Position numbers and translations under genes: made by a program
Source of the DNA: Gammaproteobacteria bacterium
GTDB taxonomy: Bacteria; Pseudomonadota; Gammaproteobacteria; 21-64-14
Reading direction: 5' to 3'
Assembly (NCBI GenBank): GCA_027013145.1
Contig: JALUXX010000011.1
Span: 192,556 to 256,555, forward strand
Length of the DNA: 64,000 nt
The notes under the pieces: generated by a model
Told to the model about the DNA's origin: nothing
The model's database searches: none
The model's input: the letters and a program-made list of their open reading frames with translations, nothing else
Shown here: positions 1,944-33,108 of the stretch, piece by piece
Numbering within the stretch: the stretch's first letter is position 1
How the letters are laid out: each line of letters starts with the position of its first letter

Positions 1944-2786
1944 GTGGCGGACGCGGCGCCGGGGCGCTACGCGGTCTTCGGCAACCCGATCGCGCACAGC
2001 CGCTCGCCGTGGATCCATCGCCGCTTCGCGGCGCAGACCGGACGCCGCGTCGACTACGAGGCCATCCTGGCGCCGCGGGATGGTTTCGCCGCGGCGCTCG
2101 AGGCCTTCCACCGCGCCGGCGGGCGCGGCGCCAACGTCACGCTGCCCTTCAAGGAGGAGGCGTGGCGGCTCGCCGACGAGTGCAGCGCGCGGGCGCGCCG
2201 GGCGCGGGCCGTCAACACCCTCGTGCTGCGCGCCGACGGCACGCGCTTCGGCGACAACACCGACGGCGCGGGGCTGTTGCGCGACCTCAGCGTCAATCTC
2301 GGCCTCGAGCTGGCCGGGGGCCGCATCCTGCTCCTCGGTGCGGGCGGTGCGGCGCGGGGCGTGCTGGGTCCGCTGCTGGAGGCCGGACCGGCGCGGGTGC
2401 ACATCGCCAACCGCACCGCGGAGCGGGCGCGCGCCCTGGCCGGGGAGTTCGCCCCCTCCGGGGCGGTCTCGGCGGGAGGGCTCGACGCGCTGCCGCAGGG
2501 CCCCTTCGACCTGGTCCTGAACGCGACCTCGGCCGGCGTCGGCGGCACCCTGCCGCCCCTGCCCCCCGGCCGCTGGGCCGCGGGCGCCTTCTGCTACGAC
2601 CTCGCCTACGGGCCGGCGGCGCGCCCGTTCCTCGACTGGGCCAAAGCGCAGGGCGCGCGCGACGCGAGCGACGGCACCGGGATGCTGGTGGAGCAGGCCG
2701 CCGAGTCGTTCGCCCTCTGGCACGGGGTGCGCCCGCAGACCACGGAGATCATCGCGGCGTTGCGGCGCGGGATGCCGGCGGTCTGA
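1944..2786 (+). CDS. aroE: shikimate dehydrogenase
   Basis: RYAVFGNPIAHSRSPWIH AroE N-terminal motif and NADP-binding GAGGAARG. Confidence 0.9.
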   Translation: MADAAPGRYAVFGNPIAHSRSPWIHRRFAAQTGRRVDYEAILAPRDGFAAALEAFHRAGGRGANVTLPFKEEAWRLADECSARARRARAVNTLVLRADGTRFGDNTDGAGLLRDLSVNLGLELAGGRILLLGAGGAARGVLGPLLEAGPARVHIANRTAERARALAGEFAPSGAVSAGGLDALPQGPFDLVLNATSAGVGGTLPPLPPGRWAAGAFCYDLAYGPAARPFLDWAKAQGARDASDGTGMLVEQAAESFALWHGVRPQTTEIIAALRRGMPAV

Positions 2787-2803
2787 CCGGTACGATACCC
2801 GAA

Positions 2804-3346
2804 TCAGGTCGCGGATCGGGCCTGGCGGTGGCGCTCCTTGAGCGTGACGTAATGGCGCGCGGAGTATTCGAGGAACTCGAGCTCCTCGCGGCGCAGGCGC
2901 CGCACGCGCCGCACCGGGCTGCCCAGCCACAGCCACCCGCCCTCGAGGCGGCGCCCCGGCGGCACCACGCTGCCGGCGCCGACCAGGCAGCGGGCGCCGA
3001 CCACGGCCCCGTCCATGATCACGCTGCCCATGCCGATCAGCGCGCCGTCTTCGATGGTGCAGGCGTGCAGGATCGCGCGGTGGCCGACGGTGACGCCGTC
3101 GCCGACGCGCACGCCCAGTCCCCCCGGACAGTAGCCGCTGTCGTGCGTCACGTGCAGCACGGAGCCGTCCTGGATGTTCGTCTCCGCCCCGATCCGGATG
3201 GCCTGGATGTCGCCGCGCGCGACCGCCGTCGGCCACAGGGAGCTGTCGCGGCCGATCACCACGTCGCCGATCACGACGGCCGCGGGATCCACGTAGGCGG
3301 TCGCGTCGACGGCGGGCAGACGGTCCTCGAAGGCGCGGATCGGCAT
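2804..3346 (-). CDS. gamma-class carbonic anhydrase family protein (hexapeptide-repeat, YrdA/PaaY-like)
   Basis: Left-handed beta-helix hexapeptide repeats. WLGSPVRRVR C-terminal motif typical of the gamma-CA family. Confidence 0.8.
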   Translation of the reverse strand: MPIRAFEDRLPAVDATAYVDPAAVVIGDVVIGRDSSLWPTAVARGDIQAIRIGAETNIQDGSVLHVTHDSGYCPGGLGVRVGDGVTVGHRAILHACTIEDGALIGMGSVIMDGAVVGARCLVGAGSVVPPGRRLEGGWLWLGSPVRRVRRLRREELEFLEYSARHYVTLKERHRQARSAT

Positions 3347-4823: not shown

Positions 4824-6902
4824 ATGGAACGACCCACCGAGACGAATCCGCTGCTCGAGATCCACGCCCTCCCGGCGTTCTCGCGCATCCGCGCCGAACA
4901 CGTCGTGCCGGCGGTCGAGCGGGTCCTGGCCGAGAACCGCGCGGCCATCGCGGACCTGACCGGCCGGGCCGGCGGGTCCGACTTCGAGGCGATCGTGGTC
5001 CCGCTCGAGGAACTCGACGACCGGCTCAACCGCGTCTGGTCGCCCGCGTCCCACCTCAACGCGGTCCTCGACGGCGAGGCGATGCGCGCGGCCTACCACG
5101 AGTGCCTGCCCAAGCTCAGCGACTACGCCGCGGAGCTGGGACAGAACGAGGCTTTGCACCGAGCCTATCGAACCCTCAGCGAGGCGCCGGATTTCGCCGC
5201 CTGGCCCGCGGAACGGCGCAAGATCGTCACCGACGCGCTGCGCGACTTCCGCCTCTCCGGGATCGAGCTCGACGCCGCGGGCCGCGCGCGCTATCGGGAC
5301 CTGCAGCAGGAACTCTCCCGCCTGACGAGCCGTTTTCAGGACAACGTGCTCGACGCCACGCACGCGTGGAAGAAGCACATCACGGACGAATCCCGCCTCG
5401 CCGGCCTGCCCGAGTCGGCGCGCGAGCTGGCGGCGCAGACGGCACGGCGCGACGGGCTCGAGGGCTGGCTGCTGACGCTGGAGTTCCCATCCTATCTCCC
5501 CGTCGTGACCTACGCGGAGGAGCGCGATTTGCGCCGCGAGGTCTATGAGGCCTATGTCACGCGCGCCTCGGATCTGGGCCCGCACGCCGGGCGCTGGGAC
5601 AACACCGAGGTCATGGACCGCATCCTCGGGCTGCGCCACGAACTCGCGGTCCTGCTGGGATTCGGAAACTACGCCGAATACTCCCTGGCAACCAAGATGG
5701 CGCACGAGCCGCGGCGGGTGCTCGAGTTCCTCGGCGATCTGGCCGCGCGCGCCGTCCCCCGCGCGCGCGAGGAGTTCGCCGAGCTTAGCGAGTTCGCCCG
5801 CGGGCGCCACGGCGCTGCCGCCCTGGAGGCCTGGGATACGGCCTACTACGCCGAGAAGCTGCGGCACGAGCGCTATGAGATCACTCAGGAGGAGTTGCGC
5901 CCCTACTTCCCCGAGCCGCGCGTGCTGGAAGGCATGTTCGATCTGGTCGGGCGCCTCTACGGGATCCGCATCCGCCGTATCGACGGCGCCGACGTCTGGC
6001 ACCCGGACGTGCGCTTCTACGAGATCCGCGGCGAGGACGGCTCGGTGCGCGGCCACTTCTACACCGACCTCTACGCGCGCCCCGGCAAACGCGGCGGGGC
6101 GTGGATGGACGAATGCCGCAACCGCAAGCACCTCGGCGCGGACCTGCAGACCCCGGTGGCACACCTGGTGTGCAATTTCTCCCCGCCGGTGGGCGACGCG
6201 CCGGCGCTGCTCACGCACGAGGAGGTCCTGACGCTGTTCCACGAGTTCGGGCACGGCCTGCACCACCTGCTCACGCGCGTGGACTACCCGAGCGTCGCCG
6301 GCATCAACGGGGTCCCCTGGGACGCGGTCGAACTGCCGAGCCAGTTCATGGAGAACTGGGGCTGGGAGCGGGCGGTGCTCGAGCGCATCGCCGTGCATTA
6401 CCGCACCGGCGCGCCGCTGCCCGAGTCGCTCTACCGGCGCATGCTGGCGGCGCGCAACTTCCATTCGGCGATGCACATGGTGCGCCAGCTCGAGTTTGCG
6501 CTGTTCGACTTCCGCATCCACCTCGAGCACGATCCGGAGGCCGGGCCGCGGATCTACGAGACCCTCGCCGAGGTGCGCCGGCAGGTGGCGGTGGTGCCGA
6601 CCGCGCCGTTCAACCGCTTCGCCCACTCCTTCACGCACATCTTCGCGGGCGGCTACGCCGCCGGCTATTACAGCTATCTGTGGGCGGAGGTGCTGTCCGC
6701 GGACGTGTTCTCCGCCTTCGAGGAGCGCGGCGGCATCGACGCGCAGACCGGTCGGCGCCTGCTCGCGACCGTGCTCGAGCGCGGCGGCTCGCGCGAGCCG
6801 ATGGACCTGTTCCGGGAGTTTCGCGGGCGCGAGCCGACCATCGACGCGCTGTTGCGGCACACCGGCCTCGCCGGGGGCGCCTCGCACGGGGCGGGGGCGT
6901 GA
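4824..6902 (+). CDS. prlC: oligopeptidase A (M3 metallopeptidase)
   Basis: HEFGHGLHH zinc motif and M3-family similarity over the full length. Start at [11 protein letters not shown]. The upstream part of the long ORF is antisense to gor. Confidence 0.9.
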
Positions 6903-6945
6903 GTCGCGCCGCGGATCCGGGCCCGCGGCCGCCGGGGCGCGCGCG

Positions 6946-7755
6946 GTGAAGATCGCCTCCTGGAACGTGAACTCGCTGCGCGTGCGTCTGCCCCACGTGC
7001 TGCGCTGGCTCGAGGACGCGGCGCCCGACGTGGTGGGCCTGCAGGAGACCAAGCTGCCGGACGAGCGTTTCCCCGCCGCCGAGTTCGAGGCCGCGGGCTA
7101 TCGCGTCCTGTATTCGGGGCAGGCGACCTACAACGGCGTCGCCCTGCTCGCACGCGCGCCGCTCGAGGGCGCGGTGACCGGGCTCGAGGGCATGGAGGAC
7201 CCGCAACGGCGCGTGCTCGCCGCGACCTGCGCCGGGGTGCGGGTCTGGAACCTCTATGTCCCCAACGGCCAGGACGTCGACTCGGACAAGTACGCCTACA
7301 AGCTCGCCTGGCTCGAGCGCCTCGCCGACACGCTGGCGGCCGACCTGCGCCGCCACCCCGATCTGGTGGCGCTCGGCGATTTCAACATCGCCCCCGAGGA
7401 CCGCGACGTCCACGACCCCGAGCGCTGGCGCGGGCGGGTGCTGTGCTCGGAGCCCGAGCGCGCCGCCTTCCGCCGCCTGCTCGATCTCGGGCTGTGCGAC
7501 ACCTTCCGGCGCTTCGACCAGCCCGAGGCGCTGTTCAGTTGGTGGGACTACCGCGCCGCGGCCTTCCGGCGCAATCTCGGGCTGCGGATCGACCACATCC
7601 TCGCCAGCCCGTCGATGTGCGCCCGCTGCACCGCGGCGCACATCGACACGGGGCCGCGTGCCTGGGAACGCCCGTCCGACCATGCGCCGGTGGTGGCCGA
7701 GTTCGACCTCGGAGCCGGGACGGGCGGGTCCCCGGCCGGCGGGAAGGGGTCGTGA
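6946..7755 (+). CDS. xthA: exodeoxyribonuclease III
   Basis: [15 protein letters not shown] and QETK motifs, C-terminal SDHAPV. GTG start at 6946. Confidence 0.9.
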
Positions 7756-9251
7756 GCGACGGAGGGCGACCGGCGGTGCGCTATACCGATCTGAGGGACT
7801 TCATCGATGCGCTGGAGCGGCGCGGCGAGCTGCGCCGCATCGGCGTCGAGGTCGACCCGCGCCTGGAGATGACCGAGATCTGCGACCGCACCCTGCGGCG
7901 GGGTGGTCCGGCGCTGCTCTTCGAGCGCCCCAAGGGGCACACGATCCCGGTGCTGGCGAACCTGTTCGGGACACCGGAGCGCGTTGCCCTGGGCATGGGA
8001 CAGGAGTCGGTCGCGGCGCTGCGCGAGGTCGGCCGGCTGCTGGCCACCCTCAAGGAGCCGGAGGCGCCGGAGGGGGTGCGCGCGGCCTGGCGCCAGCTCC
8101 CGGTGTTCAAGCAGGTGCTCAACATGGCCCCGCGCACCGTCCGCGACGCCCCCTGCCGCCGCCACGTCCACGAGGGCGGGGACGTGGACCTGGGGATGCT
8201 GCCGGTGCAGACCTGCTGGCCCGAGGACGCCGGCCCGCTGATCACCTGGGCCCTGGTGATCACCCGCGGCCCGCACCGCACGCGCCACAACCTCGGCATC
8301 TACCGCCAGCAGGTGATCGGTCGCAACCGCCTCATCATGCGCTGGCTCGCCCATCGCGGCGGGGCGCTCGATTACGCCGAGTGGCGCGCCGCGCATCCGG
8401 GCGAACCGTTCCCGGTCGCCGTCGCGCTCGGCGCCGACCCGGCCACCATCCTCGGTGCGGTGACCCCGGTACCGGACACGCTCTCGGAGTACGCCTTCGC
8501 CGGCCTGCTGCGCGGGGCGCGTACCGAGCTGGTGCGCTGCATCACCCACGACCTGATGGTCCCGGCGAGCGCGGAGTTTGTGCTCGAGGGCTGGATCCAC
8601 CCCGACGACACCGCGCCCGAGGGGCCCTTCGGCGACCATACGGGCTATTACAACGAGGTCGAGACCTTTCCCGTGTTCACCGTCGAGCGCATCACGCACC
8701 GCGCCGCGCCGATCTACCACAGCACCTACACCGGCCGCCCGCCGGACGAGCCGGCGGTGCTGGGCGCGGCGCTCAACGAGGTCTTCGTCCCCATCCTGCA
8801 GAAGCAGTTTCCCGAGATCACCGACTTCTATCTGCCGCCGGAGGGCTGTTCCTACCGCTTCGCGGTGGTCACGATCCGTAAGCAGTATCCGGGCCACGCC
8901 AAGCGCATCCTCTTCGGCGTATGGTCCTTCCTGCGCCAGTTCATGTACACCAAGTTCGTCGTGGTGACCGACGACGACGTCGACGCCCGCGACTGGAAGG
9001 ACGTCATTTGGGCCCTGTCCACGCGCATGGACCCGGTGCGCGACACGGTCCTGGTGGACCACACCCCCATCGACTACCTCGATTTCGCCTCGCCGGTCGC
9101 CGGACTCGGCGGCAAGATCGGCTTCGACGCCACCCACAAGTGGCCCGGGGAGACGCAACGCGCCTGGGGTCGGCCGATCCGCATGGACGCCGAGGTGCGC
9201 CGGCGCGTGGACGCGATGTGGTCCTCCCTCGGGATCTTCGAGGAGCCCTGA
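7752..9251 (+). CDS. ubiD: 4-hydroxy-3-polyprenylbenzoate decarboxylase
   Basis: Near-colinear with E. coli UbiD (DLRDF..., [22 protein letters not shown]). Its GTG start forms a 4-nt overlap with the xthA stop. Confidence 0.92.
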
Positions 9252-10016: not shown

Positions 10017-10886
10017 TCACGGCACCGCGATACAAGCGGGCAGGCCCGCCTCGAGGTCGGGGTAGCGCAGCTCGACGCCGAGTTCCTCGCGCAGGCGCCG
10101 GTTGTCGAGGCGGCGCGACTCTTCGAGATAGGAACGCATCGCGGCGCCGATGGCCCGGTCGGCCTCGGCGCGGGGAACCACCGGCGGGCGCGGCATCCCG
10201 AGGAGGTCGGCGACGCGGAAGAAGTAATCCGTCAGCGTGCTCGGGTGGCCGTCGGCGGCGTTGTACACCCGGCCGGGACGGCCGCGTTCGATCGCCGCGA
10301 GGCAGGCGGCGGCCAGGTCGACGGCGTGGATGCGATTGCTGAACGGCGAATCCTCCGGGCGCAACAGCGGCAGGCCGCGGCGGATGCGCTCGACCGGCAG
10401 GCGCCCGGGACCGTAGATCCCGGGCACGCGCAGGATCACGGCGGCGACGCCGCGGCGCCCGCACCAGCGGCCCAGTGCACGTTCGGCGGCGTAACGCCGG
10501 CGGGCGCGCGCGGTGCGCGGGGCCGGCGGCCGGTCCTCGTCGACCCAAGCCCCGCCGCAGTCGCCGTACACGCCGCTCGTGCTGATATAGACGAAACGCG
10601 CCGGCGGCGCGGGTTCGAGCAGGTGCAGCAGGGCCTCGACGCGGGGGTCGTGCGTCCCCGCGGCCGGGGGCGGGACGAGGCAGATCACCGTATCCGCACC
10701 GGCGATGCGCAGGTCCGGGTCCGGGGCGTCCAGATCGGCGCGCACTACCTCCACACCGCGCGCGGCGAGCGCCCCGGCGCGCCGGTCGGAACGCACGAGC
10801 GCACGCACCTGGTCGCCGCGCGCGAGCAGTGCGTCGGCGACGCGCCCACCGATGTCGCCGCAGCCGGCGATCAGCACACGGTTCAC
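10017..10886 (-). CDS. NAD-dependent epimerase/dehydratase family protein (SDR)
   Basis: N-terminal Rossmann motif VLIAGCGDIGGRV and SDR-like architecture. Confidence 0.8.
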   Translation of the reverse strand: MNRVLIAGCGDIGGRVADALLARGDQVRALVRSDRRAGALAARGVEVVRADLDAPDPDLRIAGADTVICLVPPPAAGTHDPRVEALLHLLEPAPPARFVYISTSGVYGDCGGAWVDEDRPPAPRTARARRRYAAERALGRWCGRRGVAAVILRVPGIYGPGRLPVERIRRGLPLLRPEDSPFSNRIHAVDLAAACLAAIERGRPGRVYNAADGHPSTLTDYFFRVADLLGMPRPPVVPRAEADRAIGAAMRSYLEESRRLDNRRLREELGVELRYPDLEAGLPACIAVP

Positions 10887-17081: not shown

Positions 17082-17121
17082 TCTGTCCCCTTTGGGAAGG
17101 GTCTGTCCCCTTTGGGAAGGG
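17082..17121. repeat. tandem direct repeat, 2 x 20 bp (tctgtcccctttgggaaggg)
   Basis: Two exact consecutive copies, overlapping the right inverted repeat and abutting the Yip1 stop codon. Confidence 0.9.
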
Positions 17122-17706
17122 TCACAACAGCTGGTTGCCGTACCCCCAGATGGCTACGCTGGCCATGAGCAGGGCCTCCAGCACCAGCACGCCGATGGCG
17201 AAGATCGAGCCGGAAACCCGAAGGCCCTCCTCTTTGCTGATGTTGAGGAAACAAGGCACCGCCAGATACAAGAGATACCCCGAATAAAGCAGGGCGGCCG
17301 CGCCCACGACGATGCAGACCCACACGACCGGGTACAGCGCGACCAGGCCGCTGATGAACATCGGTGTCGCGATGTAGGCGGCGAATACCACACAGCGGCG
17401 CAGAGCCGGTCTCTGGGGATAACCCCTCGCCAACCAGTGGATCACCTTCCCCATGAAGACCACCGCCGCGAGGATCGCAACGTAGAACACGGCTCCCAAA
17501 ATGGCGGCGGTAGTCTGGCTGAGGACGATCGTTTTCCCGCCAAGGTCCCAGCCGTGCCCCGTCGTTCCGATAAAGGCGCTGACCACGGGGATGGCGGCCA
17601 GCAATAACACATGGTGGCAGTAACAGTGTGAGACGCTCTCGTTTTCTTCTGCAATGGCATGCATCTCGTGATCAGGATGCGTCAGAAGTCCGCGGACATG
17701 GCTCAT
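17122..17706 (-). CDS. Yip1 family membrane protein
   Basis: MSHVRGLLTHPDHEMHAIAEENESVSHCYCHHVLLLAAIP... and five predicted TM segments match the conserved gammaproteobacterial Yip1/DUF1282 family. Confidence 0.75.
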   Translation of the reverse strand: MSHVRGLLTHPDHEMHAIAEENESVSHCYCHHVLLLAAIPVVSAFIGTTGHGWDLGGKTIVLSQTTAAILGAVFYVAILAAVVFMGKVIHWLARGYPQRPALRRCVVFAAYIATPMFISGLVALYPVVWVCIVVGAAALLYSGYLLYLAVPCFLNISKEEGLRVSGSIFAIGVLVLEALLMASVAIWGYGNQLL

Positions 17707-24923: not shown

Positions 24924-25610
24924 TCAGGGGCCCGCCAGGGCCTCCCCCAGCAGCCACGCGCGCAGATCCCGGACCTCCTCGGGGCATACCGTATGGCCCA
25001 TGTCGTAGAGATGCCACTGCGGTGCGTAGCCGAGTTCGCGCAGCCGCCGGCACGAGCGCTCGGCGATCTCCGGGGCGATGACCGGATCGGCGCCGCCGTG
25101 GGCCACGAACAGGGGCAGGTCGCGGTTCGCCGCGGCGGCCTCGGCATCCAGGCGCCCGGCGAGAGGCAGGTAGGCGGATAGGACCGCGGCCCCGGCAAGC
25201 CGCTCGGGGTGACGCAACGCGCTGTACAGGGCCAGCGCCCCGCCCTGCGAGAACCCGCCGAGCACGATGCGCCCGGCCGGCACGCCGCGGTCGATCTCAC
25301 GCTCGATCAGCGCGCGTACGATGCGCCCCGCCGCGACGATCCCCGCCTCGTCCTCGCGCCACCCGGGGCCGGGGAGGGCGAGGTCGTACCAGGCGCGCAT
25401 GCGTGCGCCGCCGTTCAGCGTGACGGGGCGGACCGGCGCGTGGGGAAACACGAAGCGGATGACGGGCGCCGGGGGGAGGCGCAACTGCCCGACCAGGGGC
25501 TCGAAGTCGTGCCCGTCGGCGCCGAGCCCGTGCAGCCAGATCACCGCGGCGTCTGCGGCACCCGACGCGCCGCGCTCCACGCACTCGGGCAATGCGGTGC
25601 CGCCGCTCAT
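24924..25610 (-). CDS. alpha/beta hydrolase, phospholipase/carboxylesterase family
   Basis: GFSQGG nucleophile elbow, HG..D catalytic residues, about 220 aa esterase fold. Confidence 0.8.
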   Translation of the reverse strand: MSGGTALPECVERGASGAADAAVIWLHGLGADGHDFEPLVGQLRLPPAPVIRFVFPHAPVRPVTLNGGARMRAWYDLALPGPGWREDEAGIVAAGRIVRALIEREIDRGVPAGRIVLGGFSQGGALALYSALRHPERLAGAAVLSAYLPLAGRLDAEAAAANRDLPLFVAHGGADPVIAPEIAERSCRRLRELGYAPQWHLYDMGHTVCPEEVRDLRAWLLGEALAGP

Positions 25611-25717
25611 CGCGCCGCCGCCTCCGGCGCCGCGGCCGCGGTGACCGGCGACGGCGGGTTCCCTGTTATACTCGCACGCATCGCAAGCCTGCGGACCCCG
25701 TCACGCCTCCCGACCGA

Positions 25718-25897
25718 ATGGGCATTCTGCCACGAACGGCCTTGGTAGTGGTCCTCGCCGGTCCGGCCCTCGGCGGCTGCGGCCAGAAGGGGCCGCTCTA
25801 CCTGCCGCCACCGGCGGCGCCGAAGTCCTCGGCCCCGGCGAAGCCGCGCCCGGACGACGGCGGGCGGAAACCCGCCGCCGCCCCGCAGGCCCCCTGA
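25718..25897 (+). CDS. small lipoprotein (LptM/YifL/LppL-like) upstream of lysA
   Basis: MGILPRTALVVVLAGPALGGCGQKGPLYLPP: lipobox LGGC followed by conserved GPLYLP. Typical position 5' of lysA. Confidence 0.75.
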   Translation: MGILPRTALVVVLAGPALGGCGQKGPLYLPPPAAPKSSAPAKPRPDDGGRKPAAAPQAP

Positions 25898-25923
25898 GAC
25901 CGGCGGCCCGGGATTCGACCTCC

Positions 25924-27174
25924 ATGGATCACTTCCGCTACCGCGACGGCCGGCTGTTCGCCGAGGACGTCGATCTCGAGGCGGTCGCCGCCGCCCACGG
26001 TACACCGTGCTACGTCTACTCGCGCGCCACCCTCGAGCGCCACTGGCGCGCCTTCGACGCCGCCCTCGCCGGGCGCCGGCATCTGGTCTGCTACGCGGTC
26101 AAGGCCAACGGCAACCTGGCGCTGCTGGACGTACTCGCGCGCCTGGGTTCCGGCTTCGACATCGTGTCCGTGGGCGAACTGGAACGGGTGTTGCGCGCGG
26201 GGGGCGCGGCCGGGAAGACGGTGTTCTCCGGCGTCGGCAAGCGCGCCGACGAGATGCGCCGGGCGCTGGAAGCGGGCATCCACTGCTTCAACGTGGAGTC
26301 CGAGGCCGAACTCGAACGCCTCGACGCCGTGGCCGGCGAGGTGGGGGTGCGCGCACCGGTCTCGTTGCGGGTGAACCCCGATGTCGACGCCCGCACCCAC
26401 CCCTACATCGCCACCGGTCTCAAGGAGAACAAGTTCGGCGTCGACCCCGAAACCGCCCTCGCCCTGTACCGGCGCGCGGCCGACATGGCACACGTGGAGG
26501 TGCGCGGGGTGGACTGTCACATCGGCTCGCAGCTCACCGACACCGGGCCGTTCGTCGCCGCCCTCGAGCGCGTGCTCGGCCTCGTCCACACCCTGCGCGA
26601 CGAGGGGATCGACGTCGCGCATCTCGACCTCGGCGGCGGGCTCGGCGTGCGTTACCGCGACGAGTGCCCGCCGTCGCCGGAACAGTACGCGGCGGCGCTG
26701 GCGCCGGTGCTGGCGGGCGAGGATCTGGAGATCCTGATCGAGCCCGGCCGGGCGCTGGTGGCCAACGCCGGCGTGCTGCTCACGCGGGTGGAATACCTCA
26801 AGCACGGCGCGGCGCGCGACTTCGTGGTGGTCGATGCGGCCATGAACGACCTCCTGCGCCCGGCGCTCTACGGCGCCTGGCACGAAATCCAGCCGGTGCG
26901 CCCGCGGCCGGACGAGCGCGCCCGGGTCTACGACGTGGTCGGCGCGATCTGCGAGACGGGGGACTTTCTCGGCAAGGAGCGTGCGCTCGCCGTGCGCGCC
27001 GGCGACCTGCTGGCCGTCCGCGGCGCGGGCGCGTACGGCTTTTCGATGAGTTCCAACTACAATGCACGCCCGCGTGCGGCCGAGGTGTTGGTCGACGGCG
27101 GGCGCGTGCGACTGGCACGGCGGCGCGAGAGCATCGAGGACCTGATGCGGGGGGAGTCCCGACTCGATCCCTGA
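25924..27174 (+). CDS. lysA: diaminopimelate decarboxylase
   Basis: PLP-dependent Orn/DAP decarboxylase motifs (CYAVKAN, GGGLG, CESGD-like EPGR), 416 aa. Confidence 0.93.
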   Translation: MDHFRYRDGRLFAEDVDLEAVAAAHGTPCYVYSRATLERHWRAFDAALAGRRHLVCYAVKANGNLALLDVLARLGSGFDIVSVGELERVLRAGGAAGKTVFSGVGKRADEMRRALEAGIHCFNVESEAELERLDAVAGEVGVRAPVSLRVNPDVDARTHPYIATGLKENKFGVDPETALALYRRAADMAHVEVRGVDCHIGSQLTDTGPFVAALERVLGLVHTLRDEGIDVAHLDLGGGLGVRYRDECPPSPEQYAAALAPVLAGEDLEILIEPGRALVANAGVLLTRVEYLKHGAARDFVVVDAAMNDLLRPALYGAWHEIQPVRPRPDERARVYDVVGAICETGDFLGKERALAVRAGDLLAVRGAGAYGFSMSSNYNARPRAAEVLVDGGRVRLARRRESIEDLMRGESRLDP

Positions 27175-27226
27175 GAGACGGCGTGCGGCACCCGAAAGGA
27201 CCCGCCGTCGTTACCGGAACGAAGGG

Positions 27227-27256
27227 AGGAGGGCGGCCGCGGGCGGCCGCCCTCCG
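27227..27256. terminator. GC-rich perfect hairpin (ggagggcggccgc ggg gcggccgccctcc) between convergent lysA and the repeat-protein gene
   Basis: 13-bp inverted repeat with a 3-nt loop. No T-tract. Possible bidirectional terminator. Confidence 0.5.
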
Positions 27257-27267
27257 GAGGGGGTCGA

Positions 27268-27786
27268 TCAGTCGACCTCGGGGCGATTCACCTCGGGCCG
27301 GTCGATCTCCGGGCGCTGAATCTCCGGGCGCTGGATCTCGGGCTTCTCGATTTCCGGCTTTTCGATTTCCGGCTTCTCGATCTCGGGCCGGTCGACGTGC
27401 GGCCGGTCGACATCCGGTTTGTCCACGTCGGGCTTGTCCACGTCGGGCTTGTCGACGTCGGGCTTGTCGACGTGCGGCCGGTCGATATCGGGCCCCCGGT
27501 GTTCGGGGCGATGCAGTTCGACCTCGCTCTGCGCCCTCGGGTTGCCGGGGACGGCGGCGGTGGCCGGCGCGCCCGGTCCGTTGGACACCGCCGGGGTGGC
27601 CGCCATCGATCCGTCCATCGCGGCGCTCGCCGAGTCGTCACCCACGGTGGCGCCGGTCGTGCCCTGCACCTGGACGTCGACTCCGGCGGATGCGGGGGCG
27701 GCGGTGGCCGTCGCGCCCAGGGACAGCCCGAGCGCGAGCGCCGAGGCCGCGGAAATCAGGAAACCTGCTCTCTTCGTGTGCTTCAT
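27268..27786 (-). CDS. secreted low-complexity protein with 17 C-terminal pentapeptide repeats [DE]-[RK]-P-[EDH]-[IV]
   Basis: Signal peptide MKHTKRAGFLISAASALALGLSLGATATA, Ala/Gly/Thr-rich linker, then HVDKPDVDKPDVDKPDVDKPDVDRPHVDRPEIEKPEIEKPEIEKPEIQRPEIQRPEIDRPEVNRPEVD. GGAGG RBS. Confidence 0.75.
   Translation of the reverse strand: MKHTKRAGFLISAASALALGLSLGATATAAPASAGVDVQVQGTTGATVGDDSASAAMDGSMAATPAVSNGPGAPATAAVPGNPRAQSEVELHRPEHRGPDIDRPHVDKPDVDKPDVDKPDVDKPDVDRPHVDRPEIEKPEIEKPEIEKPEIQRPEIQRPEIDRPEVNRPEVD
27271..27500. repeat. 15-nt periodic coding tandem repeat (about 15 units)
   Basis: Direct sequence periodicity (ctcgggcttctcgat / gtcgacgtcgggctt variants) encoding the pentapeptide array. 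Confidence 0.9.
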
Positions 27787-27815
27787 TGCCGTTACCTCCT
27801 CGTAGAGCGGTACGC

Positions 27816-28598
27816 TCAGAACCGGAGATGAGCGCCGACGCCGACGCCGTAGTCGGGACTGCCGCTGCTCAACCCCAGATCACCGAAGACCTGGAACCCG
27901 GTACCGGGCCGCAGATCGTAGTTCCACGCGGCGATCGCATCGGAGGCCGCCGCGAATCCGGCCTGCTCGGACTGATGGCCGGAGTACATCAGGGTCAGGA
28001 ACTGCCCCGGGACCACTCTCAGGCTGGCGCCGACCTCATAGGTGACGATGTTGCGCAGCGGGAGGTTGGGCGGGGATCCGACGACGCGGTAGCCGATCTG
28101 CCCGAACGGAAACAGGCCGGTACCGATCACGGTATCGGCCTCGAGGCCGAATTCGTAGTCGTTCTCGCCGGTCCCCAGGCCCTTGCTGCGTGAGGCGGTG
28201 GCGAACTTGATCTTCGTGTAGGGCGCCAGATCCGGCATCGCGCCGCGCCCGTGCAGCGTGTACTTGCCTTCCAGCCACAGGTCGCCCAGGCCGCTTTCGG
28301 TGCGCGACGAACCGCTCCCGGTCTTGCCGACGACGGTGCCCCCGGAGACCAGGGCGCCGCTGCTCTTGACTGCGATATAGGGCACGGTGAGCTTGAGTTC
28401 CGCGTTCCCGTCGTGGTAGCGGATATAGGTGGGGACGTACCAGATCTGGATGTTTCCGGGGGTGCCGAAACCGCCTTCGAAATAGGACGGCTGCACGCCC
28501 ACCGTGACCTGCGGTTGGGCCGCCAAGGACTGCGGCCCCCAGCCGGCTCCCGCGCCCGCCAGTACCAATGCCACCGCCACCCGCGCCGCTCGACGCAT
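27816..28598 (-). CDS. outer-membrane beta-barrel protein (putative transporter, MetA/phenol-degradation-like OMP family)
   Basis: Signal peptide MRRAARVAVALVLAGAGAGW, alternating amphipathic beta-strands, C-terminal GAHLRF ending in Phe. Strong RBS. 30 nt upstream of the repeat-protein gene. Confidence 0.7.
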   Translation of the reverse strand: MRRAARVAVALVLAGAGAGWGPQSLAAQPQVTVGVQPSYFEGGFGTPGNIQIWYVPTYIRYHDGNAELKLTVPYIAVKSSGALVSGGTVVGKTGSGSSRTESGLGDLWLEGKYTLHGRGAMPDLAPYTKIKFATASRSKGLGTGENDYEFGLEADTVIGTGLFPFGQIGYRVVGSPPNLPLRNIVTYEVGASLRVVPGQFLTLMYSGHQSEQAGFAAASDAIAAWNYDLRPGTGFQVFGDLGLSSGSPDYGVGVGAHLRF

Positions 28599-28727
28599 TC
28601 GCCTCTCCTTTCTGCCGGTGGATCCGCCCCGGGGGTGATATCCGCCCCGGGCCAGGCCCTGTATTGCGTGGAATTTTATCCCATTCCAAAACTGGAGTGT
28701 CGCCTTTACACTACAGTCTGGTTACGC

Positions 28728-28797
28728 TACGATGGAAATCGTAGTGGGATTTTTTCCCACTGTCAAATGACGGTTCCGTTTCTGTGACCCGGGTCAC
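28728..28797. promoter_or_regulatory. cluster of three palindromes in a divergent promoter (ctacgatggaaatcgtag; gtgggattttttcccac; gtgacccgggtcac)
   Basis: Perfect inverted repeats in the AT-rich 224-bp region between the OMP gene and the DUF6502-like gene. The last lies 26-39 nt upstream of the ATG at 28823. Confidence 0.5.
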
Positions 28798-28822
28798 GAT
28801 CCGGGTCGCGCTGGAGTCGAAG

Positions 28823-29656
28823 ATGGCGGGCAACCCGCTTCAGACCGCGCTGATCGGCCTGCTGCGCCCCCTGGTGCGGTATCTGATCGGGCACGGCTGG
28901 CACTACCCGGCGCTGTGTGCCTTGCTCAAGGGCCTCTATGTCGCGGAAGCCGCCGCCCTCGACGCCGGCGCGGCCCGCGCGACCGACAGCCGCCTGAGTC
29001 TGCTGACGGGTATCCACCGCCGCGAGGTCAAGCGCCTGCGCAAAGTGTGGGAGGGCGCCGCGACCCCGCCCGCGCCCGCACCGGCCGCGAACCTCGCCGC
29101 GCGGGTGGTCGCCACCTGGGCTTCGGCGCCGGAGTACCTCGACGCCGACGGGGCCCCGAGAGAACTCCCGCTGCGCGAGGCGGGCGCGGGTCCCTCCTTC
29201 GAGGGGCTCGTGCGCGGCGTGACCGCGGACGTGCGCGCGCGCTCGGTGCTGGACGAGCTCGTGCGCGTCGGCGCGGCCGAAGAGACTCCCCGGGGCGTGC
29301 GCCTGCGGCGCACGGCCTACGTCTCGCCGCTCCCGGAGGAGAAGCTCGAGTTCCTCGCCGCCAATGTCGGCGACCACCTGCGCAGCGCGCTGCACAATCT
29401 GACCCACCCGGACCGCCCCTATCTGGAGCGTGCCCTGTATCATGATTCGATCCCCGCCGCGGAACTCGACCGGCTGCGCCCCGAACTGGTCCGGCTCGCG
29501 GAGCCGGTGCTGCGCGCGGCCAACCGGCGCCTGATCGACGCGACGACGGTCGGGACCGAGAGTCCGCGGGCGCCGCGCCGGCGCCTGCGACTGGGGATCT
29601 ACTACTACGAGGAGGACAGCGGTGGCCCTGGGACCCCCCCCGACCGTGGAAACTGA
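28823..29656 (+). CDS. DUF6502-like protein with putative HTH (possible regulator); family assignment from memory
   Basis: Conserved N-terminal LRPLVRYLIGHGWHYPALCALLKGLYVAEA and an HTH-like LSLLTGIHRREVKRLR. Start taken at ATG 28823; the ORF itself opens at 28784. Confidence 0.6.
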   Translation: MAGNPLQTALIGLLRPLVRYLIGHGWHYPALCALLKGLYVAEAAALDAGAARATDSRLSLLTGIHRREVKRLRKVWEGAATPPAPAPAANLAARVVATWASAPEYLDADGAPRELPLREAGAGPSFEGLVRGVTADVRARSVLDELVRVGAAEETPRGVRLRRTAYVSPLPEEKLEFLAANVGDHLRSALHNLTHPDRPYLERALYHDSIPAAELDRLRPELVRLAEPVLRAANRRLIDATTVGTESPRAPRRRLRLGIYYYEEDSGGPGTPPDRGN

Positions 29657-29663
29657 GGCGGGC

Positions 29664-30851
29664 ATGCGCCGCGCGCGTCGGCGCCGGCGCACCGGCGTTT
29701 CGCTGCGCCTGCTGCCGGTGCTGCTGCTCGCCGCCCTCGCCGGTCCCCTGTCGCTGGGGGCCCCCGGCGGCGGTATCGGCGGCACCGGTATCACCGGGTT
29801 CGGGCCGATCCAGGGCTTCGGCAGCATCTTCGTGAACGGCCGCGAGTACTTCCTCGGGCCGCGTACCCGCTACACCGTCGACGGGCACCCGGCCGGGCGC
29901 ACTGCACTCCGCGTCGGCGATACGGTGGTCGTGCGCGGGACCGGCGCGCCGGGGCGGCGCACCGGCCGCGCCGCCGCGGTCGCGGTGCGCCACCCGCTGG
30001 TCGGGCCGGTGCAGGCGCTCGCGCCCGACGGCCGCGGCATCGTCGTATTCGGTCAGCGCGTGCGCATCCCCGCCGGGACGCCGGTGGCCAGTGCCGGCGG
30101 TGATCCGGTCACCCTGCGGCGCGGCGACTGGGTGGCGGTGAGCGCCCTCGGCGACGGGCGCGGGCGCTGGGTGGCCACGCGCGTCGCGGTGCGTCATCGC
30201 GCCGGGGCCGCCCCCGCCGGGGTGCGGGCGGTCCTCGAAGGCCGGGTGACGGCGGCGGGCCCCGGCGGCGTCCTGCAGGTGGGGGCCCAACCGGTGCGTC
30301 TGCGCGGGGGGCCGATGCCGGCGCGCGGCGCGGCGGTGCGTATCGTCGGGCGCTACCGCGCCGGCGTGATCGTGGCCGCGCGGGCGCTCCCGGAGCGGCC
30401 CGACCTCGGCGGTCGCGGGCGCTACGTGGAGATGGCGGGGTATCCCACGATGAGCGCGAACGGAACGCTGCACAGCAACGGTGTCGTCCTGCGTCCGGTC
30501 ACGCGCCTCGCCGCGCCCGAACGCGCCGAGCTGCACCGCGACCGGCCGCTGGTGTTCGCCGGGCGGATCGGGGCCGACGGCGCCCTCGACCTGCTGCGCG
30601 TCGAGCCGCCGCGGGCACCGTCGCGCCCGCACGCCGAGCGCGGCGGGGCGGAGCACGGGGCGCAGGTCGAACGCCCCGAGGGCGCCCACACGGAGGGCGG
30701 GAAACCCGAGATCGAGCGGCCCGAAATCCGCAAGCCGGAGATCGAGCCGCCCGAAATCCAGCGGCCCCAGATCGAACGCCCCCAGATCGAGCGGCCCCAG
30801 ATCGAGCGGCCGGAAATCCAGCATCCAGAGATCGAGATGCCGGGCCATTGA
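29664..30851 (+). CDS. secreted DUF5666-domain protein with a C-terminal [EQ]-[RK]-P-[EQ]-I pentapeptide repeat array
   Basis: Signal peptide MRRARRRRRTGVSLRLLPVLLLAALAG, GIGGTGITGFGPIQGFGSIFVNG DUF5666 signature in three copies, C-terminal KPEIERPEIRKPEIEPPEIQRPQIERPQIERPQIERPEIQHPEIE. Confidence 0.75.
   Translation: MRRARRRRRTGVSLRLLPVLLLAALAGPLSLGAPGGGIGGTGITGFGPIQGFGSIFVNGREYFLGPRTRYTVDGHPAGRTALRVGDTVVVRGTGAPGRRTGRAAAVAVRHPLVGPVQALAPDGRGIVVFGQRVRIPAGTPVASAGGDPVTLRRGDWVAVSALGDGRGRWVATRVAVRHRAGAAPAGVRAVLEGRVTAAGPGGVLQVGAQPVRLRGGPMPARGAAVRIVGRYRAGVIVAARALPERPDLGGRGRYVEMAGYPTMSANGTLHSNGVVLRPVTRLAAPERAELHRDRPLVFAGRIGADGALDLLRVEPPRAPSRPHAERGGAEHGAQVERPEGAHTEGGKPEIERPEIRKPEIEPPEIQRPQIERPQIERPQIERPEIQHPEIEMPGH
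30703..30840. repeat. 15-nt periodic coding tandem repeat (about 9 units), paralogous to 27271..27500
   Basis: cccgagatcgagcgg-type periodic units. The DNA resembles the reverse complement of the array in the 27268..27786 gene. Confidence 0.85.
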
Positions 30852-30871
30852 GCCGCCGGGATCGCGCCGCG

Positions 30872-31576
30872 ATGGAACGGATCCCCGAGCCGGAGCTGAT
30901 GGACGAGCCCGGGCAGGTGCGCGCCTACGCCGAGGCGGATTTCGAGGAACCGCACCGGCGGTTCATCGAGGGCTTTCGCGGGGCCTTCCCGCGGCTCGCG
31001 GTGGTCGGGCGGGTACTCGATCTGGGCTGCGGGCCGGGCGATATCACCCGGCGCTTCCTCGAGGCCTACCCGGCCTGCCGCGTCGACGCCCTCGACGGCG
31101 CGGCCAACATGCTGCGCTGGGCCGACCGTGCCCTGACGGCGGCGGGCGTGCGCGAACGGGTGCGCCTGATTCACGCGCGTCTGCCGCAGACCGATCTGCC
31201 CGAACGCGCCTACGACGTGGTGATCTCCAACAGCCTGCTGCATCACCTCCACGACCCCGCTGTACTCTGGCAGGCGCTGCGCCGTCACGGCCGCCCGGGT
31301 GCGGCCGTCTACGTCGTGGACCTGCGGCGCCCGGCGAGCGCCGCGCAGGCGCAGGCGCTCGTCGCCGCCCATGCGGGCGGCGAGCCGCCGGTGTTGCAGC
31401 GGGACTTCCTGCACTCGCTCTGCGCCGCCTTCGAGCCCGGCGAGGTCCGCCGCCAGCTCGCCGCGGCGGGGCTCGGCTCGCTGCGCGTCGCCGCCCGCGG
31501 CGACCGCCATCTCACCGTGAGCGGCCGCCTGCCGGCCGCCCGGCCCGCATGGCCCGGCGGCCCATGCGTGCGGTAA
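30872..31576 (+). CDS. class I SAM-dependent methyltransferase
   Basis: VLDLGCGPGD motif I, acidic motif II, Rossmann-fold MTase architecture. Start at MERIPEPELMDEP. Confidence 0.8.
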   Translation: MERIPEPELMDEPGQVRAYAEADFEEPHRRFIEGFRGAFPRLAVVGRVLDLGCGPGDITRRFLEAYPACRVDALDGAANMLRWADRALTAAGVRERVRLIHARLPQTDLPERAYDVVISNSLLHHLHDPAVLWQALRRHGRPGAAVYVVDLRRPASAAQAQALVAAHAGGEPPVLQRDFLHSLCAAFEPGEVRRQLAAAGLGSLRVAARGDRHLTVSGRLPAARPAWPGGPCVR

Positions 31577-31585
31577 GCTGCGCGC

Positions 31586-32410
31586 ATGCACTTCACCAAG
31601 ATGCACGGGCTGGGCAACGACTTCGTCGTCGTCGACACCCTGACGGCGCCGCTGGACCTCGGCGCCGCGCAGGTGCGCCGCCTCGCCGACCGCCGCCTCG
31701 GCGTGGGCTGCGATCAGGTGCTGATCATCGGCGCCCCCACCGACCCCGCGGCCGATTTCCGCTATGTCATCTACAACGCCGACGGCAGCCGCGCCGAACA
31801 GTGCGGCAACGGCGTGCGCTGCATCGCCCGCTACCTCGCGGATCACGGGCTGGCCGAACGTCCGGAACTGGTCCTGCAGGGCGATGCCGGGCGCGTGCGC
31901 GCGCGGCTGGAGGCCGACGGGGCGGTGACGGTCGACATGGGCATCCCGCGCCTGGAGCCCGCGGCGATCCCGTTCGCGGCCGAACGGCGCGCACCGGGCT
32001 ACACGCTCGAGGTGGACGGGCGCGAGGTGAGCATCGACGCCGTCTCGATGGGCAACCCGCACGCGGTGCTGCTCGTCGACGACGTCGAGCGCGCGCCGGT
32101 GGCGACGCTGGGGCCCGCCATCGAGTCCCACCCGCGCTTCCCGCAGCGCGCCAACGTCGGCTTCCTGCAGGTCGTCGACCGCACCCACGCGCGCCTGCGC
32201 GTCTACGAGCGCGGCGCCGGCGAGACGCCGGCCTGCGGCAGCGGTGCGTGCGCCGCGGCGGTCGCCGGGCGTCTGCGCGGGCTCCTCGACGAGCGCGTTC
32301 ACATCCGCCTGCCGGGCGGGGAACTTGTGCTATCCTGGTCCGGCGAAGGCGCGCCGGTGTGGATGACTGGACCGGCCGTCTCGGTATTCGAGGGACAGAT
32401 CCGGCCATGA
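31586..32410 (+). CDS. dapF: diaminopimelate epimerase
   Basis: MHFTKMHGLGNDFVVVD, both catalytic Cys motifs (NADGS..CGNG and GSGACA), 274 aa. Confidence 0.93.
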   Translation: MHFTKMHGLGNDFVVVDTLTAPLDLGAAQVRRLADRRLGVGCDQVLIIGAPTDPAADFRYVIYNADGSRAEQCGNGVRCIARYLADHGLAERPELVLQGDAGRVRARLEADGAVTVDMGIPRLEPAAIPFAAERRAPGYTLEVDGREVSIDAVSMGNPHAVLLVDDVERAPVATLGPAIESHPRFPQRANVGFLQVVDRTHARLRVYERGAGETPACGSGACAAAVAGRLRGLLDERVHIRLPGGELVLSWSGEGAPVWMTGPAVSVFEGQIRP

Positions 32411-33108
32411 GCACCCAGCGTCCGGCGGGCGTCGACGAGGAGCCGATCAGCGAAGCGGCGGTCATCGAGTACCTGCGCAGCCATCCGGACTTCTTCGAGA
32501 AGCACATCACCCTGTTGACGACCCTGCGCGTGCCGCATCCGAGCGGCGGGGCCGTGTCCCTGATCGAACGTCAGGTCGGCGCGCTGCGCCAGCAGAATCA
32601 GCAGTTGCGCCGCAAGCTGATGGACATGGTGCAGGCCGCGCGCGACAACGAGGAACTCACCGGGCGCATGCAGCAGCTCGGAGTCGCACTCGCCGACGCC
32701 ACCGACCTGCAGGACGTCCTCGAGACACTCGACGAGGTGCTGCGCCGCGACTTCCGCGCCGACGCCGTGGCGCTGTGCCTGATCGACGCGCCCGCGCCGG
32801 CCGCCGCCCCGGCGCACGTGCGGGCACTCGACGGCGCCGATCCGGGCCTCGCCCACTTCGCCAAGGTCCTCGAGACCAACCGGCCCGTGTGCGGCCGGCT
32901 CAAGACGCAGCAGCTCGAATTCCTGTTCGGCGAGGATGCGCCGGCGATCGCCTCCGGCGCCGTGATCCCTCTGGTGGCGGCGCGCCCCCTCGGCATCCTC
33001 GCCATCGGCAGCCGCGACCCGCACCGGTTCCATCCGGCGATGGGGACGGTCTTCCTGCGGCACATGGGCGAACTGGTCAGCCACACCCTGCGCCCCTACG
33101 TGGACTGA
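32407..33108 (+). CDS. DUF484 family protein
   Basis: Conserved dapF-DUF484-xerC arrangement, YLRSHPDFF motif. 4-nt overlap with dapF. Confidence 0.8.
   Translation: MSTQRPAGVDEEPISEAAVIEYLRSHPDFFEKHITLLTTLRVPHPSGGAVSLIERQVGALRQQNQQLRRKLMDMVQAARDNEELTGRMQQLGVALADATDLQDVLETLDEVLRRDFRADAVALCLIDAPAPAAAPAHVRALDGADPGLAHFAKVLETNRPVCGRLKTQQLEFLFGEDAPAIASGAVIPLVAARPLGILAIGSRDPHRFHPAMGTVFLRHMGELVSHTLRPYVD

Follow-up and report, generated by a model that had tools for sequence, protein, structure and literature searches.

Co-varying low-complexity tails on two secreted proteins, one of them a DUF5666 protein, encoded with an outer-membrane beta-barrel-like protein and a DUF6502 regulator candidate in a gammaproteobacterial genome

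Five genes lie between lysA (25924..27174, +) and dapF (31586..32410, +) in a 64,000-nucleotide stretch of contig JALUXX010000011.1 from a Gammaproteobacteria bacterium (assembly GCA_027013145.1; the whole stretch is called the window here). Two of them, a small gene (A) and a DUF5666 gene (B), encode proteins that end in tandem arrays of proline-containing pentapeptides. Four of the genes form a cassette, in which A and B are accompanied by the genes for an outer-membrane beta-barrel and a DUF6502 helix-turn-helix protein. As described below, the tails of A and B change their chemistry together from lineage to lineage, and what is conserved is that both proteins have a tail and that the two tails match, not a particular rod geometry.

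Both arrays had been pointed out in an earlier note made from the sequence, and both are real, although the count for A has to be lowered from 17 to 16. Array A occupies residues 92-171 with 16 in-phase pentads (HRPEH, RGPDI, DRPHV, four DKPDV, DRPHV, DRPEI, three EKPEI, two QRPEI, DRPEV and NRPEV) and is followed by a single Asp, and array B is composed of nine strict pentads and a degenerate one (GKPEI, ERPEI, RKPEI, EPPEI, QRPQI, two ERPQI, ERPEI, QHPEI and EMPGH). A six-frame scan of the window found three or more in-phase ..P.[IV] pentads at two places only (runs of 15 and 9), and these runs are not due to chance. The N-termini of both proteins resemble, by eye, cleavable signal peptides with AxA-type sites. 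In protein A this signal-peptide-like segment leads into an Ala/Thr/Pro low-complexity region and then into the array. Its AlphaFold2 model (mean predicted local distance difference test score, pLDDT, of 56) is without secondary structure or a globular domain, the tail being the best part (62-78), and no Pfam or NCBIfam family was assigned to the protein, the only match being a sub-threshold one to Extensin_1. We define an A-like family here by four features, namely a signal peptide, the motif ATPAxPGNPxA, an x-x-P-x-[IV] array at the C-terminus and adjacency of the gene to a barrel gene, and protein A of the window shows each of them. The motif ATPA[MV]PGNPxA ahead of the array is common to about 25 A-like proteins, and the A-like gene adjoins the barrel gene in every locus inspected for adjacency. 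A word-indexed protein search with A gave only 2 matches and synteny later gave about 30 relatives; low-complexity proteins like A are systematically under-detected by such a search.

Protein B passes the Pfam DUF5666 model (PF18914) with 48.9 bits against a gathering cut-off of 27, in two stretches, and nearly all of its 83 homologues are annotated PF18914. It is built from a signal peptide, a conserved GGIGGTGITGFG motif, an all-beta body, a Gly/His/Glu linker and the pentad tail. AlphaFold2 (mean pLDDT 83.4) predicted the all-beta body confidently at residues 41-315. In the model this body resembles a string of small OB-like barrels, for which Foldseek gave weak matches to ribosomal protein bS1, Mpa OB domains, RPA, CcmE and CusF; sequence profiles of B and of the barrel found nothing significant among solved structures in the PDB. 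The tail of B was modelled as coil with a pLDDT of 60-76, and DSSP assigned no element in either tail. Tail values of 60-78 exceed those of typical disorder and are compatible with an extended chain. Most of the approximately 48 closest B homologues (from metagenome-assembled genomes, Acidithiobacillus and Sulfuricaulis) have x-x-P-E-[IV]-type units at their ends, up to about 10 of them in one array.

Within the clade that carries pentads, A and B of one genome have the same type of unit, with RP-type units in the window and TP/AP-type units in Parvibaculum. In Thiomonas, both proteins carry uncharged NVPSV/QTPAV-like units, so that the charged residues stressed in the earlier note are not what is conserved in the pentad. 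The position-specific cosine between A and B units was 0.507 as compared with 0.377±0.046 for permuted pairs (11 dereplicated lineages, p=0.004). The numbers of units in A and B correlated weakly (rho 0.59, p=0.056), and no claim is drawn from this.

At least 557 relatives of DUF6502 came out of a metagenome scan that was anchored on this family, and the best 80 loci were retrieved. Sixty-three of these 80 hold a DUF5666-family open reading frame (ORF), complete in 54, which lies on the same strand just downstream of DUF6502 in the loci examined. Pentad tails were found on DUF5666 in the 6 closest of the 80 loci only, and 33 of the 54 complete DUF5666 ORFs have other low-complexity tails, such as ERPERV hexads, (EKV/EKA)n, Asp/Arg/His-rich, Gly-rich (...GGMGGRR) or Ser/Gly sequences. 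Several of these non-pentad lineages possess, beside DUF6502, a small low-complexity protein with a signal peptide and a chemistry like that of the B tail. In L088, the small protein reads RAERVDRPER... and both proteins end in ...DRSGR, while that of L091 runs through ATPATP... into AERPEK units. The tails in L092 and L100 are Arg/Asp/His-rich, those of both proteins in L132 are of the Ser/Gly kind, and L093 (670..1020 and 1974..3167; also L090) has Met/His-rich sequence in the small protein as well as in the DUF5666 tail (AAMHNKMSTM... and ...RPMPAMSQNRPMPMMKH). When the mature small protein was compared with the B tail over 17 lineages, the centred composition cosine was 0.497 as compared with 0.006±0.087 for permuted pairs (p~2e-5). 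The co-variation extends over RPE[IV] and uncharged pentads as well as ERPERV, AERPEK, Arg/Asp/His-rich, Met/His-rich and Ser/Gly tails. By contrast, the same comparison with the globular body of B gave 0.075 (p=0.17), indicating that genome composition does not explain the match between the tails.

Given that tail chemistry shifts jointly in A and B, the tail is most likely a shared docking or spacer element by which both proteins engage a common partner or each other, and we assign this reading a probability of roughly one half. The arrays would then be the form taken in this lineage by a C-terminal tail that evolves fast, does not fold and is borne by both secreted components of the cassette. 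Proline at position 3 together with a beta-branched Ile/Val at position 5 would block helix and sheet and keep the chain extended and soluble in vivo, and both proteins would engage the same partner through the tail, whether the barrel, another envelope component or each other. The barrel encoded in the same cassette suggests itself as a candidate for that partner. The number of units spans 4 to about 24 among orthologues, and there is therefore no fixed ruler length. Of the polyproline-II rods spanning the periplasm that the earlier note envisaged, the non-globular tails without predicted secondary structure (pLDDT 60-78) are retained, but the geometry is not conserved, the more distant DUF5666 orthologues having tails of other kinds such as Pro-free (EKV)n. 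Spanning of the periplasm is not supported; the tails are C-terminal without a domain after them.

Several observations weigh against a shared docking or spacer element. Zetaproteobacteria have the barrel and A without B, many DUF6502-DUF5666 loci have no detectable A-like gene, and the four parts of the cassette thus do not strictly depend on each other. C-terminal tails with nothing beyond them are unusual for a spacer. Some DUF5666 lineages have Gly-rich or Pro-free (EKV)n tails, which, combined with the range in unit number, indicates that an extended Pro-based geometry is not universally required. The six non-pentad small proteins in the 17-lineage comparison were chosen by eye from a screen for a signal peptide and low entropy in which the B tail was not used, and the ascertainment is therefore not fully blind. 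At three loci the two tails share longer DNA strings (19 nucleotides in L004, 17 in L056 and 16 in L088), where occasional gene conversion may have taken place. Finally, the partner and the localisation of A and B, like the extended conformation of the tails in vivo, are inferred. A more far-reaching proposal, which is conceivable and put forward tentatively, is that the cassette represents an unrecognised envelope system with a lineage-specific tail code, in which matched disordered tails recognise a partner or each other and are possibly threaded through or docked on the co-encoded beta-barrel. If true, bacterial specificity would be achieved here by matched disordered repeats and not by folded interfaces.

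The match between the tails would also be accounted for if both proteins bound the same ion. The tails could be polyelectrolytes that bind metal ions or other cations, or else mineral surfaces, as part of a periplasmic or surface metal-handling module; the chemistry of the tail would then follow the ion or surface met by each lineage. The hosts (Acidithiobacillus, Thiomonas, Halothiobacillus, Acidiferrobacterales and Zetaproteobacteria) are mostly oxidisers of iron or sulfur and inhabitants of metal-rich environments. In L001 (6808..9251) and L002 (1825..3168), neither of which has DUF6502 or DUF5666 at the locus, an ArsR-type HTH_5 regulator comes after the barrel-A pair, with cation-diffusion-facilitator efflux genes behind it (two in L001, one on the short L002 contig). 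The Met/His-rich tails of both L093 proteins resemble Cu(I) motifs (MPMMKH, AAMHNKM), Asp/Arg/His-rich tails occur in other lineages, the linker ahead of array B is rich in His, Glu and Gly, and CusF, one of the weak fold matches of the B body along with CcmE, is a periplasmic metal chaperone. However, the invariant residues of the pentad, Pro and Ile/Val, are non-ligands, and His and Met make up only 4-6% and 3-4% of the variable positions, respectively. The uncharged tails of Thiomonas do not fit such a role, Ser/Gly and (EKV)n tails are poor ligands, and no His, Met or Cys is conserved among the invariant columns of the DUF5666 body. Among 117 flanking ORFs at 18 loci no family occurred in more than 3 loci and no metal-related family recurred; the cassette is therefore self-contained. 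We consider metal binding a doubtful explanation of the tails.

The other extreme would be that the tails are tolerated slippage expansions without a role, their likeness within a genome arising from mutational bias or gene conversion. Tail chemistry and length do turn over very fast, pentads of this type are found again in thousands of proteins without any relation to these, the two tails share 16-19 nucleotides at the three loci mentioned above, and close relatives differ by whole-unit insertions or deletions. Between L004 and L005, B is identical and A differs by one clean 15-nucleotide unit plus unit-level shuffling; strain L076, the barrel DNA of which is 94% identical, has 14 A units as compared with 16 in the window by way of two exact five-residue gaps; and L007 has about 11. 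The copy-number change by slipped-strand mispairing foreseen in the earlier note is thus seen as whole-unit changes between relatives, but on an evolutionary scale and in imperfect repeats. Instead of near-perfect 15-nucleotide tandem repeats, self-identity at a lag of 15 nucleotides is only 73% in array A and 66% in array B, Tandem Repeats Finder reports 73-81% matches, and the longest exact run at this lag is 20 nucleotides in A and 17 in B. Identical peptides are encoded by varied codons (three DNA versions for the four DKPDV units and three for the three EKPEI units), and the longest DNA string common to the two arrays is 12 nucleotides. The arrays are alike as peptides and not as DNA, contrary to the resemblance of their DNA claimed before.

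Purifying selection on the peptide argues against expansions without a role. The ratio of nonsynonymous to synonymous differences (pN/pS) between the window and L076 was 0.18 in array A as compared with 0.50 in the N-terminal part, and there are many synonymous differences between units of the same peptide. Across lineages position 5 is Ile/Val in 82% of the units and position 3 is Pro by construction, while positions 1, 2 and 4 drift (E/Q/D, then R/T/A/K, then E/D/Q). Slippage thus changes the copy number over evolutionary scale with the peptide remaining constrained, and the array is no hypermutable contingency locus. Furthermore, both proteins keep a tail across many lineages; A is little but tail, so that a tail without a role would leave a functionless yet conserved gene; and the fit of A to the tail of B and not to its body speaks against a genome-wide bias. 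Recent gene conversion between the arrays was considered and rejected, as the longest DNA string common to both tails of one locus is mostly 7-12 nucleotides, no longer than in cross-genome pairs. Expansion without a role is therefore unlikely.

A beta-solenoid like that of the Rfr pentapeptide-repeat proteins, with Ile/Val as the inward centre and Pro two residues before it, is very improbable. The tandem period of five with a hydrophobic and a small residue at i and i-2 is what the two have in common, an analogy read from sequence. However, the consensus of those proteins is a different one (A(D/N)LXX), neither A nor B matched the Pentapeptide models (PF00805 and relatives) at E<=0.1, and AlphaFold2 predicted no strand in either tail; a high net charge with one Pro in every five residues is unfavourable to a solenoid, and the 4-10 units often present are too few for stability. 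An assembly or frame artefact, which has only the general difficulty of repeat assembly to speak for it, can be dismissed, as a second, independent assembly (Logan, L074) gives DNA identical to the window for both genes, the reading frame holds in the orthologous arrays of dozens of independent assemblies, both arrays are imperfect and short, at 150-240 nucleotides, and strain differences are clean multiples of 15 nucleotides.

The pentad itself is not peculiar to this cassette. The 81-residue tail of A was used in a phmmer search of 1.84 billion cluster representatives and matched at least 2,245 proteins at E<=1e-3, 428 of them at E<=1e-10, E-values being generous for repeats. Among the best 150 matches, 110 had at least five in-phase x-x-P-x-[IVLM] pentads, in arrays that are internal in 91 cases, C-terminal in 11 and N-terminal in 8, within proteins of 160 to 4,000 amino acids. 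Ten of the matched proteins were scanned against Pfam. Six were DUF5666 proteins in which 8-30 in-phase pentads form an array that lies close to the C-terminus or reaches it, one (P0124) was a genuine TonB_C protein with a periplasmic (KKPEV)x19 spacer, and the rest were a subtilase, a TPR protein and an AAA-domain protein with an ExeA/GspA-like N-terminus. The pentad is a widespread, uncurated, extended linker- or spacer-type repeat and not a new fold. The earlier note had raised the possibility of a widespread and already characterised domain; widespread it is, but no library characterises it, and nothing specific came from a literature search on periplasmic linkers with proline-rich pentapeptides. 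The tails of A and B had no Pentapeptide, TonB or other match in Pfam or NCBIfam except to plant Extensin_1.

The comparison with TonB drawn in the earlier note gains from P0124 and is apt. Like the TonB spacer (PMC7098700), the tails of A and B combine periodic Pro with charged residues, belong to a Gram-negative envelope setting and are predicted to be non-globular and extended. By contrast, their period is 5 instead of 2, Ile/Val is obligatory in every unit, and each array ends no more than one residue before the stop codon with no domain following. The N-termini of A and B look like cleavable signal peptides and are probably not the uncleaved membrane anchor with which TonB pairs with ExbB/ExbD, and neither protein gave a TonB_C match in Pfam at E<=0.1. 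Neither exbB nor exbD was noticed among the ORFs of 25000..33000, only five of which were scanned with Pfam. It is reasonable to suppose that the likeness would hold for the way of working and not for family membership.

Extensin_1 (PF02095) scored 47.9 bits for A and 21.1 bits for B, both under the gathering threshold of 105. A distant DUF5666 protein with 30 units exceeds this threshold with 129.5 bits, indicating that the model responds to composition. Plant proline-rich cell-wall proteins carry PPVYK/PPVEK pentads, which share with A and B a five-residue period containing Pro, a beta-branched and a basic residue, whereas the tails of A and B are bacterial, have one Pro per unit and lack the Tyr for cross-linking. 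The likeness is compositional convergence and not homology, and naming the pentad would avoid a misleading plant 'Extensin' annotation of bacterial proteins. Titin PEVK and the trypanosome procyclin EP/GPEET repeats are likewise charged, Pro-containing repeats that are extended or entropic instead of folded; given their eukaryotic origin, other ancestry and other context, they offer an analogy only. As a separate observation, many proteins of 1,300-4,200 amino acids (P0169, P0172, P0173, P0187, P0202, P0207 and others) contain x-N-P-D-I pentads (YNPDIENPDIE..., NPDISNPDIS...) in internal arrays that lie some 750-870 residues away from the N-terminus. Several of them have an N-terminal '...GRNVNMVS' motif, and they appear to be a distinct family with the same type of pentad.

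The arrangement of A-barrel and DUF6502-B between lysA and dapF recurs in relatives of the window. A scan by barrel alignment with one genome per species gave 65 loci with barrel homologues of 45-82% identity, close ones being found in Acidiferrobacterales, Thiomonas, Halothiobacillus, Zetaproteobacteria, Parvibaculum and many metagenome-assembled genomes of Proteobacteria. About 30 of these loci hold the whole cassette, with the A-like gene and the DUF6502-DUF5666 operon no further than about 3 kb from the barrel gene and with three different gene orders. Distant barrels of Gallionellaceae (about 30% identity) have neither A nor the DUF6502-DUF5666 partner. Seen from DUF6502, a barrel-family ORF is present in 27 of the 54 loci with a complete DUF5666 and lies directly downstream in 12. 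The hosts of the cassette are sulfur and iron oxidisers and their relatives, and the cassette is enriched in lithotrophs of metal-rich habitats. The barrel protein of the window has a signal peptide and the C-terminal ...RF, and two of five barrel family members matched Phenol_MetA_deg (PF13557) weakly (best 1.4e-5), the window copy giving no match at E<=1. The matches in Zetaproteobacteria and Gallionellaceae had led us to consider the stalk-formation (sfz/sfb) cluster of iron oxidisers, the genes of which are BcsB-like, glycosyltransferase and glycosyl-hydrolase genes, and it was rejected as unrelated. In L019 (Mariprofundaceae), two A-like genes (8732..9178 and 10058..10483) with ETPEV/EAPEV-type arrays lie near one barrel gene, in a locus without the DUF6502-DUF5666 operon.

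B and its upstream neighbour are clear members of the DUF5666/DUF6502 pair of uncharacterised Pfam families. The DUF6502 protein matched its model (PF20112) with 87.2 bits against a cut-off of 27 over profile positions 5-264 of 268. It reads as cytoplasmic, with no signal peptide or transmembrane segment, and contains an HTH-like segment, SRLSLLTGIHRREVKRL; its gene overlaps the start of B. The region between the barrel and DUF6502 genes contains the palindrome GTGGGA-N5-TCCCAC twice, in an imperfect copy at 28668..28684 and again at 28744..28760, and both are kept in the intergenic regions of L004, L007 and L076. Sigma-70-like promoters are found on both strands (plus, 28705..28733; minus, 28766..28738; two sites in the scan as compared with 0.1 expected), the second palindrome overlaps the -35 box (TTGACA) of the minus-strand barrel-A promoter, and a further inverted repeat is located at 28725..28746. 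The palindromes are a likely candidate operator for the HTH-like DUF6502 protein, which is probably the regulator of the cassette, and the combination of palindromes, promoters and HTH-like segment suggests that DUF6502 would control the cassette together with its own expression.

In the literature, DUF5666 was found only in lists (as a co-expression hub gene of A. ferrooxidans and as a feature of a pH-prediction model) and nothing was found on DUF6502; neither the libraries nor the literature searched gave a description of a low-complexity tail of DUF5666 with a matched small partner. The pentad being ordinary, the context of the cassette is the more useful result, as it brings together three DUF-level genes and one unannotated small gene that are widespread. 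The co-variation of the tails offers an experimental handle for a first function of DUF5666 and DUF6502, and the cassette is a tractable case for studying co-evolution of disordered repeat regions between partner proteins.

The features of the locus are collected in Table 1. The window has a G+C content of 72%. Tandem Repeats Finder marks 27231..27250 within the hairpin between lysA and A, which is probably the shared terminator of both genes; the terminator scan made no call there because the hairpin has no T-run. The database entry for B uses the GTG start. The methyltransferase gene after B is present in L007 (9188..9868), L008 and L074 (1023..1727) and absent from L004-L006, and is an accessory gene of the nearest lineages only.

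Table 1. Coordinates of the cassette, its arrays and adjoining features in the window
Feature	Position	Strand	Description
Hairpin between lysA and A	27228..27255		Perfect GC-rich hairpin (GGAGGGCGGCCGC..GCGGCCGCCCTCC) separating convergent lysA and A; read from sequence
Gene A	27268..27786	-	Small secreted protein, 172 aa; ORF with GGAGG Shine-Dalgarno
Array A	27274..27513	-	16 in-phase pentads, consensus [DEQN]-[RK]-P-[EDH]-[IV]
Outer-membrane beta-barrel-like gene	27816..28598	-	260 aa; directly upstream of A, same strand
Divergent promoter/operator region	28668..28760		Between barrel gene and DUF6502 gene
DUF6502 gene	28784..29656	+	Pfam match; likely start ATG 28823, giving 277 aa, as called in L074
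Gene B (DUF5666)	29664..30851	+	395 aa from ATG 29664, or 409 aa from GTG 29622
Array B	30699..30848	+	9 strict pentads and 1 degenerate, consensus E-R-P-[EQ]-I
S-adenosylmethionine (SAM)-dependent methyltransferase gene	30872..31576	+	Pfam Methyltransf_25/11/12; 21 nt downstream of B

A few minor observations were made along the way. The exact sequence of A is missing from a collection of 15 billion proteins, though a gene of 172 residues is called at the corresponding place in L074. The L079 locus encodes two DUF5666 genes, and in the paralogue at 6185..7399 the N-terminal motif GGIGGTGI, conserved in DUF5666, is tandemly repeated five times (GGIGGTGIHPGGIGGTGIHSGGIGGTGIQP...). In one metagenome-assembled genome, a group II intron reverse transcriptase/maturase (RVT_1 and GIIM; L012, 195..1256) lies about 3.4 kb from the cassette. 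The cleanest entry in the Tandem Repeats Finder table of the window is a perfect 20-nucleotide tandem repeat at 17082..17123 (TCTGTCCCCTTTGGGAAGGG; 2.1 copies, 100% match), the unit of which holds an inverted repeat, CCCTT..AAGGG.

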